Below are positions 1-2,970 of a DNA stretch of 64,000 nucleotides, in pieces. Source of the stretch: Escherichia coli (GTDB lineage: Bacteria; Pseudomonadota; Gammaproteobacteria; Enterobacterales; Enterobacteriaceae); assembly GCF_041886205.1 (NCBI RefSeq), contig NZ_CP169029.1. One strand, written 5' to 3'. The number at the start of each line of letters is the position of its first letter. Within the stretch, counting starts at the first letter, position 1. The notes beneath the pieces are model-generated. The model saw only the letters and a list, made by a program, of their open reading frames with translations, searched no databases and was not told where the DNA came from. The position numbers were made by a program, and so were the translations under genes.

Positions 1-2970
1 AATCGAGAACTTACTTGCGACGTCGTTTGGCACAGAGAAGGTGATTTCTTTATCTTTTAGTGGGTTGCCATTTTTATCCTGCAAGGTTGCAGTCATATAT
101 TGCGGAGCTGTGTTGGTGACGGTGATATCACCTGAAGGCACACTGAGGGTCAGGGCAGCAGTACTTTGATCACCGATAAAATTCACCTGTTGATTAGCCT
201 GGGAACCAGAGCTCACAGAGGCCGTAACCCTATAATCACCATTTTTCAAACTGGTCAGCGTAGCTGTGGCGATCCCGTCGTGGCTATTCACTTCGGTTTG
301 GCTCAGTTTCGCCTCTGCTGAATTAACATTGAAAGTGACCATGACGTCATTGAGCAGGTTGCCTTTTGCATCCCGGACGGTCGCGGTCATTGTGACGCTG
401 TCATTGCCGTCAGCAACCACTTCATTTTTCGACTTCTGCAGATCAACCTGCGCGGTACTCGAGTCGCCGACAAAACTGACGATTAACGTTTGTTTCACGC
501 CATTTTCAAGGGTGACTTCAACCGTGTTGTCTTCCTGCTTACTACTTTTCAGATCAAAAGTCGCCAGGCCATTAACATCCGTTTTTGCGGTGTTTTGATT
601 GTTGAAGGAAGTTGCCGATCCGCTTAATACCGCAAACGTGACGGTATGATCATTGATTGGGTTGCTTCCTTCATCAGCGACATTGACCGAGACGGTGTTT
701 GCTGCATTCTCATTGGCGAGCACACCATTATTGCTGGCAGATAATGTCGCAATTTTCGCTGACTGCGGGTTGGCGTCGATGATAAATCCAGCGGTATGCA
801 AATCTTCATTCCAGTTTTGCATTAATAGCTTCGCAGTAAGTCCACTGCCTTTGGTATAGGCGGTATAGGTCGCCTTATAGACGCCATCTGCGGTTTCTTT
901 CCAGTCTGTAGTGACTCCTGGTTTCACGTTGTCGATGCTGACTGCGTTATTCAGTTGCTGTTTTTGTTCCTTAACAGGTTTGTCATTTTCATCTCTCAGT
1001 TCTACCGTCACCTCGATAGGATTGCCGGAGAGATAACGGTCCTTATCAATCTTAATTGACGAGTGAGTTCGGGATGACGAAACAGAAATGATATTCACCA
1101 CGGCGGGGGCTTTAGCCGCATCCACACCATTCAGCTGTGGCATCAGCGTCAGCGTGCCAGACATCGCTCCTGTGGTCAGGATCTGGGTATAGCTTCCGTC
1201 ACCATTATCTTTCCAGTCAGAAAGGGTGATGTCCTGAACACCTTCGTGACGCGTCGAGAGCACCAGCCCGACAACAGGATTACCTGCTGCATCATGCGCA
1301 ATAAAAGTCAGTGTGGCGGTTGAATGGGAATCCGCGTTCAATGTTTGGGTACTTAACGATACCGAGGAATCTTTCTGGCTTAGCGTAGGTGCCTGAACGA
1401 CCACCATGCTCTGTTCACGATTCGACAAATTGCCTTTGGCATCTTCGGCGGTGACTTCAATCGGCCAGGTGTTATCGGTTTCTGGCGTACTGGTGAACCG
1501 GTAAGCCGGCAGGGTAACCAGAATATCTTTACCCGTTGTGACCACTTTGCCACCGGCAGCTTCCAGTGCGGTGGCTTCGACGTTATAGCCTTTCAGGGCA
1601 TATTTGGTTTGTAGCGACGAAACCAGTGATTTCACTTCTCCTGACTTCCCTGTCACGGGGTCTGTCAGGGTCAGGCGAACCAGTTCTTTTTTGCGATATT
1701 CCAGAACGATATTGTTGTTGCGATCCACCAGATCATAACGGCTGCCTGCAAGGCTACGCCGTGCAGCGACTTCATTCGGGTCAAGCTGTTTCTGCATTGC
1801 GCTGCCAGGTTGCCAGGTAAAATCGACGGCAAAACGGGTGTCATTTTCGCCCTGTTTACCCTGGCGTTGCTCCGCGCTGAAGGTCATCAGCGGGAAGGGG
1901 GTATAGTTAAGTCCAGCGGTTATGGCATGAGGATTACTTTGCCGATCGTCTTTATCGAACAGGGCCACTTCATCGCCATAATACTGTTCATAGACCAGTT
2001 TACCGCCAAGGTGCGGCCAGGCGGGTAGCCAGCTTTCTGCGCGTACATCCCAGCCATTGGCCGGGCGTGCTTCATAATCGTTGTCCAGTTCAGGTGCGCT
2101 GCGCCAGTTGGTCAGTCGCAAATAGCCGTTACTGCTTAATTTTAGATAGTCGCGCCAGTACTCCGCGCCAATGCCGGCGCGGGAGTGGTAACGGCTAAGA
2201 TCGTGGTCGAAAAAGAAGTTGATGCCCGACATCCATGTGGGAGTGAAATGACGCCAACCTAAGCCGTTGTTAATCTGCGTACGCTCGTCAGTACGATGGA
2301 GAGTATGCTGACTGAAAAAGAGATTATCAGGCGTTTCATACCACGGATGGAGAAAATCGAACTGGGAGTTCTTCAGGCTAAAATCTTCATCCACGCCCAG
2401 CGTGATTCTTGCGGTACCGAAGCGGCTTAACCAGTCTGTCATTGCGCCTGAAGCCTGAGAAGAGGCCCATCCACGCGCCATATTTGCCGCTTGCTCGCTG
2501 TTCATATCTTCGGCGAGCAGAGACCCGATTTGCTGTGAAGTACTGGCTATCTGTTGCTCGAGGTTGTCACTGCTATTACCCGGCGGCGGGGTTAATTTTT
2601 TTTCACTAACTTGTGCCGGGACATCCAGTTCATCACCCTGGCGGACATTATCAAAACCTCGAGCAAACGTACGAAACTGGTTGAGTTTGCGTAACTCAGC
2701 CACCGAAATACCGAAACGTTCGGCAACGCTTTGGGCCGATTCCAACGCTCCAAGGGTGTAGGGCACCGTATTGGCATTTGCAATGGCAATTTGTGCAGGA
2801 ACTGGTTGTTGGGTTGCGGCGTTTACCACACCTTGTGCTGCCGCAGCCATAGGGAACGCAAGTTGAGTTATCAGACAGATACCCGCAGTTAAGCGGCGTA
2901 GTTTAATTCCCATCCCGCATAATATTTGTCGGTCATTTATTTCTTCTCCACTTCTCTTCTTCGTAGCCAT
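1..2970 (-). CDS. yeeJ: Inverse-autotransporter (intimin/invasin-family) adhesin YeeJ, N-terminal ~990 codons; gene continues past window start
   Basis: Minus-strand frame reads MATKKRSGEEINDRQILCGMGIKLRRLTAGICL... from ATG at 2968-2970. Absent from ORF track, consistent with an open frame running off the window edge. Confidence 0.85.
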   Translation of the reverse strand, partial: MATKKRSGEEINDRQILCGMGIKLRRLTAGICLITQLAFPMAAAAQGVVNAATQQPVPAQIAIANANTVPYTLGALESAQSVAERFGISVAELRKLNQFRTFARGFDNVRQGDELDVPAQVSEKKLTPPPGNSSDNLEQQIASTSQQIGSLLAEDMNSEQAANMARGWASSQASGAMTDWLSRFGTARITLGVDEDFSLKNSQFDFLHPWYETPDNLFFSQHTLHRTDERTQINNGLGWRHFTPTWMSGINFFFDHDLSRYHSRAGIGAEYWRDYLKLSSNGYLRLTNWRSAPELDNDYEARPANGWDVRAESWLPAWPHLGGKLVYEQYYGDEVALFDKDDRQSNPHAITAGLNYTPFPLMTFSAEQRQGKQGENDTRFAVDFTWQPGSAMQKQLDPNEVAARRSLAGSRYDLVDRNNNIVLEYRKKELVRLTLTDPVTGKSGEVKSLVSSLQTKYALKGYNVEATALEAAGGKVVTTGKDILVTLPAYRFTSTPETDNTWPIEVTAEDAKGNLSNREQSMVVVQAPTLSQKDSSVSLSTQTLNADSHSTATLTFIAHDAAGNPVVGLVLSTRHEGVQDITLSDWKDNGDGSYTQILTTGAMSGTLTLMPQLNGVDAAKAPAVVNIISVSSSRTHSSIKIDKDRYLSGNPIEVTVELRDENDKPVKEQKQQLNNAVSIDNVKPGVTTDWKETADGVYKATYTAYTKGSGLTAKLLMQNWNEDLHTAGFIIDANPQSAKIATLSASNNGVLANENAANTVSVNVADEGSNPINDHTVTFAVLSGSATSFNNQNTAKTDVNGLATFDLKSSKQEDNTVEVTLENGVKQTLIVSFVGDSSTAQVDLQKSKNEVVADGNDSVTMTATVRDAKGNLLNDVMVTFNVNSAEAKLSQTEVNSHDGIATATLTSLKNGDYRVTASVSSGSQANQQVNFIGDQSTAALTLSVPSGDITVTNTAPQYMTATLQDKNGNPLKDKEITFSVPNDVASKFSI

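Follow-up and report, generated by a model that had tools for sequence, protein, structure and literature searches.

A stretch of 64,000 nt of Escherichia coli DNA (contig NZ_CP169029.1 of assembly GCF_041886205.1; hereafter, the window) starts on its minus strand with what sequence identity and gene order identify as the 5' part of the chromosomal gene yeeJ (b1978 in K-12), coding for a type Ve inverse autotransporter (IAT) adhesin. We infer with high confidence that yeeJ of the source genome is intact and represents the short, K-12-type allele of 7077 bp. This conclusion draws on the close relatives of the window, since the 990 open N-terminal codons do not by themselves settle the integrity or the length variant of the gene: both the variant-defining segment and the known disruptions are located further downstream.

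Translation of the minus strand from position 2970 to position 1 yields 990 codons with zero stops, starting from the ATG at 2970-2968 and beginning with MATKKRSGEEINDRQILCGMGIKLRR; the chance of such a stop-free run in random sequence is about 2e-21. The frame passes the window edge at position 1 and is therefore missing from the listing of open reading frames (ORFs). Compared with the corresponding part of yeeJ in strain TST3, the window shows one nucleotide difference, no amino acid differences, and no frameshift; three nucleotide differences and one amino acid difference were observed for K-12 MG1655 (A511 in the window, V in K-12; 989/990 identical residues), and four and two, respectively, for LR-27. 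The sequence-only reading, which had described the first 990 codons as open and free of stops and frameshifts, is thus confirmed by both translation and comparison with reference genomes.

The identity of the gene was established by megablast of positions 1-4000 against 5426 complete RefSeq genomes of E. coli, the same set that was used for the population survey described below. The matches have 99.9-100% identity and are annotated as "yeeJ: inverse autotransporter adhesin YeeJ". In TST3 and K-12 MG1655, the annotated yeeJ starts at the base equivalent to window position 2970 and is 7077 bp long. The genomic context (asnT, mtfA, serU, and yodB) is as in K-12, with tRNA-Asn, mtfA, and tRNA-Ser retaining the same order and spacing. 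These matches, the asnT-mtfA context, the IAT beta-barrel, and the immunoglobulin-like (Ig-like) repeats agree with the name yeeJ proposed from the sequence alone. Among the NCBIfam hidden Markov models (HMMs), none is specific for YeeJ, and the top model, that of the IatC N-terminal part, scores under its cut-off; the family naming therefore rests on identity to the annotated K-12 YeeJ.

The remainder of the gene in close relatives

Loci of the same lineage (L020-L028) were recovered by exact-protein look-up of a rare ZinT allele, whose F199 was seen in none of the other loci compared, and of the lineage YeeJ protein. Over 6.6-16.5 kb, they show only 1-3 differences from the window, and five of them (L022, L023, L024, L027, and L028) are 100% identical to it over positions 1-2970. 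Eight of the lineage loci include yeeJ, and in each of them the gene measures 7077 nt, encodes 2358 amino acids, contains no N, and has a single terminal stop. The exact 2358-aa lineage protein is present on 14 contigs, and it is distinguished from K-12 YeeJ by three substitutions (V511A, A1252T, and V2130I) and six nucleotide differences over 7077 nt. An intact yeeJ of 7077 bp is likewise annotated in five close complete genomes (TST3, MG1655, LR-27, CFSAN061772, and wlxctx60), and truncation shortly beyond position 1 was seen in no close relative. Look-up of the exact TST3 YeeJ protein returned only TST3-like contigs, which are 99.19% identical to the flank of yeeJ in the window, and the FliC allele of the window is common (484 index blocks).

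Domain content, start codon, and upstream region

The window covers the probable signal peptide, the probable LysM domain, the IAT beta-barrel, and, of the Ig-like domains of YeeJ, the first four plus half of the fifth, with 1368 codons remaining outside (Table 1). The signal sequence of YeeJ was also predicted previously by SignalP, and experiments have demonstrated peptidoglycan binding for the LysM domain of K-12 YeeJ, whose sequence the window segment shares without change (Martinez-Gil et al., 2017; PMC5595812). The beta-barrel is matched by PF11924 almost end to end (E 2e-113; 379 bits, cut-off 22.3; model positions 2-279 of 279), and residues 182-426 can be aligned with two barrels of known structure, those of invasin (4E1T, E 1e-80) and intimin (4E1S, E 1e-67). 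C-terminal to the barrel, the window part of the Ig-like passenger scores 157.8 bits with Big_1 and 137.7 bits with Invasin_D3. The full-length lineage protein contains 14-15 Ig-like repeats by Pfam; such repeats are known to cause misassembly (PMC5595812). The region of its presumed C-terminal lectin-like cap, located outside the window and studied in locus L027, has two weak matches below the cut-off, Intimin_C (E 0.01) and Invasin_D4 (E 2e-4).

Table 1. Coordinates of yeeJ, its domains, and neighboring features in the window
Feature	Position	Strand	Evidence or comment
5' 42% of yeeJ, codons 1-990 of 2358, open	1..2970	minus	Translation; comparison with TST3 and K-12; yeeJ annotation of the matching genomes
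Probable Sec signal peptide, residues 20-45, MGIKLRRLTAGICLITQLAFPMAAAA	2836..2913	minus	By eye: basic n-region, hydrophobic core, AAA motif
Probable peptidoglycan-binding LysM domain, residues 70-118	2617..2763	minus	Delta-LysM primers and "49 amino acid" LysM of PMC5595812
IAT beta-barrel translocator, residues 144-419	1714..2541	minus	Pfam PF11924 IAT_beta
Ig-like passenger domain 1, residues 532-624, Invasin_D3 type	1099..1377	minus	E 1.9e-18
Ig-like passenger domain 2, residues 637-709, weak match	844..1062	minus	Invasin_D3 E 2e-5, below Pfam cut-off
Ig-like passenger domain 3, residues 741-834, Big_1	469..750	minus	E 2e-16
Ig-like passenger domain 4, residues 842-932, Big_1	175..447	minus	E 2e-24
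Ig-like domain 5, first half (residues 940-1036 in the full protein), cut at window edge	1..153	minus	Mapped on lineage locus L027
asnT-yeeJ intergenic region, 39% GC, with terminator-like hairpin and private base 3275; no island inserted	2971..3283	minus	
tRNA-Asn (asnT), landmark adjoining yeeJ	3284..3359	minus	tRNA detection; annotation in TST3 and K-12
ZinT allele G75, K155, F199, lineage marker	5884-6534	minus	Rare, 21 public contigs

Given this architecture, the pathway of YeeJ can be proposed from the established knowledge of type Ve secretion and from the experiments of Martinez-Gil et al. (PMC5595812), with the window itself being read as sequence. The signal peptide would direct passage across the inner membrane via Sec, the LysM domain would bind peptidoglycan in the periplasm and aid localization, and the beta-barrel (residues about 144-426) would insert into the outer membrane. 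The C-terminal passenger, consisting of the Ig-like rod and the lectin-like cap, would then be exported through the barrel and displayed on the surface, where YeeJ, when expressed, is expected to promote biofilm formation. Surface display and LysM-peptidoglycan binding were demonstrated for YeeJ in the cited study, where constitutive expression raised biofilm formation and the protein bound none of the cells or matrix proteins tested.

The same study argued that the true YeeJ has 2340 amino acids and not the annotated 2358, which points to Met20, encoded by the sole nearby in-frame ATG (2913-2911, minus strand), as the start. Met20 stands directly before the signal peptide and would yield a protein shorter by approximately 18 residues. 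On the other side, the Shine-Dalgarno-like motif AGGGAAGG, located 5 nt upstream of the ATG at 2970, favors the annotated start, and the count of 990 codons used here follows the automated annotation.

Upstream of the gene, a hairpin with a 14-bp stem and a U run (3161-3197, minus strand; folding free energy -26.3 kcal/mol, z -7.1) is probably the terminator of asnT, although it was not reported by the consensus terminator scan. The intergenic region also contains a position at which the window differs from all of its relatives. On the plus strand, position 3275 is A in the window and T in all 11 loci compared (K-12, TST3, LR-27, and the eight lineage loci), and the 81-nt context of this base finds no exact match in the 5426 complete genomes, the best being 80/81. 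Situated 9 nt beyond asnT on its 3' side, in the upstream region of yeeJ, the T-to-A change reflects a private mutation or, alternatively, a sequencing error.

Length variants, disruptions, and alternative readings

The population survey demonstrates a patchy distribution of yeeJ. The N-terminal 2970 nt were found at a coverage of at least 80% in 2804 of the 5426 complete genomes, the full short-type gene in 1664 genomes (~31%), and the 906-bp segment of the long variant in 1277 genomes (~24%), while most of the remaining genomes retain only a yeeJ remnant of about 330 bp to 2.4 kb. Disruptions take several forms. In PI6, a 99.8%-identical allele is open for approximately 1439 codons and then carries a frameshift and is split by IS1203; insertions of the insertion sequences (ISs) IS3 and IS2 interrupt yeeJ in other sampled genomes (H68, H76, and H83); and in MS15046, the yersiniabactin island ends at fyuA, adjoining a fragmented yeeJ, asnT being a known site of island integration (PMC5595812). 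The long variant of O157:H7 has a gene of 7983 bp and a protein of 2660 amino acids, and it differs from the K-12 type by a single 302-aa indel after residue ~1062. The indel site corresponds to gene nucleotides ~3187-3209, some 220-240 nt past the window edge, and hence the variant cannot be read directly from the window. The full length of about 2350 codons suggested by the sequence-only reading is correct for the short variant, whereas the known 2660-aa variant was left unmentioned there.

The variable integrity of yeeJ among E. coli lineages, also noted from the sequence alone, is both documented in the literature (PMC5595812; PMC6714894) and evident among the genomes compared here, and the caution voiced there about the rest of the gene was justified. 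Intact yeeJ was previously observed in 38 of 96 genomes and frameshifted yeeJ in 15 further genomes, and the two variants were found to differ by 906 bp (PMC5595812). The presence, variants, and patchy integrity of the gene were already described in 2017 and 2019, and nothing in the present data is new in this respect.

Several points weigh against an intact, active YeeJ of the short type in the source strain. The window stops at codon 990 and proves nothing about the remainder of the gene. The window has no full match among public sequences, which all differ from it at least at position 3275; this leaves room for a private lesion. K-12-like alleles with an open N-terminal part and a disrupted C-terminal part do exist, as in PI6, and frameshifts were reported in 15 of 53 yeeJ-positive genomes (PMC5595812). 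The Pfam match of the LysM domain is weak (E 0.0094; 16.3 bits, cut-off 20.9). Finally, yeeJ is barely expressed under laboratory conditions (PMC5595812), so that integrity of the ORF is no proof of an active adhesin.

The last point leads to the alternative that survives best, namely that yeeJ is intact but silent, so that its integrity has no phenotypic meaning in this strain. Expression of yeeJ is very low in K-12, and the promoter was found to be active only upon de-repression in mutants of pnp, the gene for PNPase (polynucleotide phosphorylase; PMC5595812); in the window, the 190 nt that separate the yeeJ ATG from the terminator hairpin of asnT gave no sigma70-like hit in the promoter scan, a result that is uninformative about regulation. 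Nonetheless, many lineages retain yeeJ whole and almost unchanged, the divergence from K-12 here being the six nucleotides mentioned above, and such near-invariance argues against a gene free of selection. We regard a cryptic yeeJ as possible, yet rather doubtful.

According to another alternative, a frameshift, nonsense mutation, IS, or deletion past the window edge has turned the gene into a pseudogene despite its open N-terminus. The precedent of PI6, the IS3 and IS2 insertions, the proportion of frameshifted genes in the 2017 survey, and at least one private change relative to the lineage (at 3275) are compatible with it. It is nevertheless improbable given the relatives, since all eight lineage loci, which show 1-3 differences in up to 16.5 kb, and the five close complete genomes keep the gene intact. 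At a rate of approximately one private change per 16.5 kb, the missing 4.1 kb should contain ~0.25 changes, only a small share of which would inactivate the gene.

The private base may also have consequences of its own. If real, the change at 3275 could alter the 3' processing of tRNA-Asn, the attachment region for islands, or the expression of yeeJ; alternatively, the strain could carry a private lesion in the part of yeeJ beyond the window edge. We consider such scenarios very unlikely, and either of them, if true, would be a strain-level detail of a known gene.

Continuation of the gene as the long variant of the UMN026/O157 type (7983 bp, 2660 amino acids) is hardly credible. In its favor, the indel lies just past the window edge, the 906-bp segment is frequent in the population, and locus L011 has a 2660-aa gene beside a flank that shares 98.95% identity with the window. 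Against it, the O157-type yeeJ has an identity of only 97.8% over its first 3209 nt to the TST3 allele, which is of the K-12 type and nearly identical to the window, positions 1-2970 of the window are 100% identical to five short-variant lineage loci, and all genomes of at least 99.8% identity, among the matches listed, are annotated with the 7077-bp YeeJ.

An intact yeeJ of the short type thus remains the preferred reading, and its implications are modest. YeeJ is a characterized biofilm-promoting adhesin, and the result concerns an ordinary, already described gene of little consequence. For strain typing, the window places the strain with K-12-like genomes that keep an uninterrupted asnT-yeeJ junction, with no yersiniabactin island there.

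Wider window and comparison with known systems

Among the 5426 complete genomes, LR-27 is the closest to the window over the first 25 kb, with an identity of 99.6-99.8%. Strains wlxctx60 and 6EVA match the last 25 kb (39001-64000, the side of fliC to araG) with 100% identity; within the first 13 kb (1-13000), the part in which K-12-like genomes come closest to the window, wlxctx60 differs by ~1.9%. Judging from these identities, the ancestry of the window is mosaic along its length. Because LR-27 reaches only the above level of identity, and wlxctx60 and 6EVA are ~1.9% off at the yeeJ end, none of the complete genomes is the source of the window.

Several other features were observed near yeeJ and further along the window. 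The gene adjoining the 3' end of yeeJ, located outside the window (2242-4632 in locus L001; 3580-4632 in L002), encodes a family 9 glycosyltransferase; it carries an internal stop in K-12, LR-27, and CFSAN061772, is also split by ISVsa5 in TST3, and is intact in wlxctx60 and O157:H7. Within the window, the gene for a porin similar to YedS/OmpC (12667-13881, minus strand) forms an open 404-aa frame; its counterpart in K-12 MG1655 is a pseudogene with a frameshift, that of LR-27 is interrupted by IS1, and public assemblies contain the exact protein very often (5915 index blocks). Two small RNAs, rseX (14194-14283, minus strand) and DsrA (22619-22705, plus strand), occupy the same places as in K-12, with Rfam matches exceeding the gathering scores.

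The nearest known system is YeeJ of K-12 MG1655 (b1978; WP_010723107.1), which occupies the same asnT locus; the lineage protein has the same length of 2358 amino acids. Among its three substitutions, A511 is present in the window itself, whereas A1252T and V2130I fall outside the window and were observed in the relatives, and the change at 3275 is an additional difference upstream of the gene. The long YeeJ of UMN026 and O157:H7 (2660 amino acids) shares the locus and the architecture, and it is co-linear with the K-12 type except for one block, the extra 906 bp encoding 302 amino acids (approximately three Ig-like domains) after residue ~1062; the Prokaryotic Genome Annotation Pipeline (PGAP) names it "Ig-like domain-containing protein".

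Intimin (Eae) and the invasin of Yersinia, the prototypes of type Ve secretion, have a homologous 12-stranded barrel, and their order of LysM, barrel, Ig-like rod, and lectin-like cap is also the one proposed for YeeJ. In contrast to both, YeeJ is far longer and has no known Tir or integrin receptor. The intimin model of NCBIfam (NF033627) yields 432 bits for the full-length lineage protein and 334 bits for the window part, compared with a cut-off of 1400, and by these scores YeeJ is a relative of intimin, not an intimin. Likewise, YeeJ is related to invasin, FdeC, and IatC but falls outside these named families, as its NCBIfam scores stay under the cut-offs. Of the other inverse autotransporters of E. 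coli, IatC and FdeC (Goh et al., 2019; PMC6714894) belong to the same family as YeeJ and are encoded at other chromosomal loci: the IatC model is the best NCBIfam model for YeeJ, with 1181 bits over residues 4-836 against a cut-off of 2400, and the FdeC structure 4E9L aligns to YeeJ residues 523-642.

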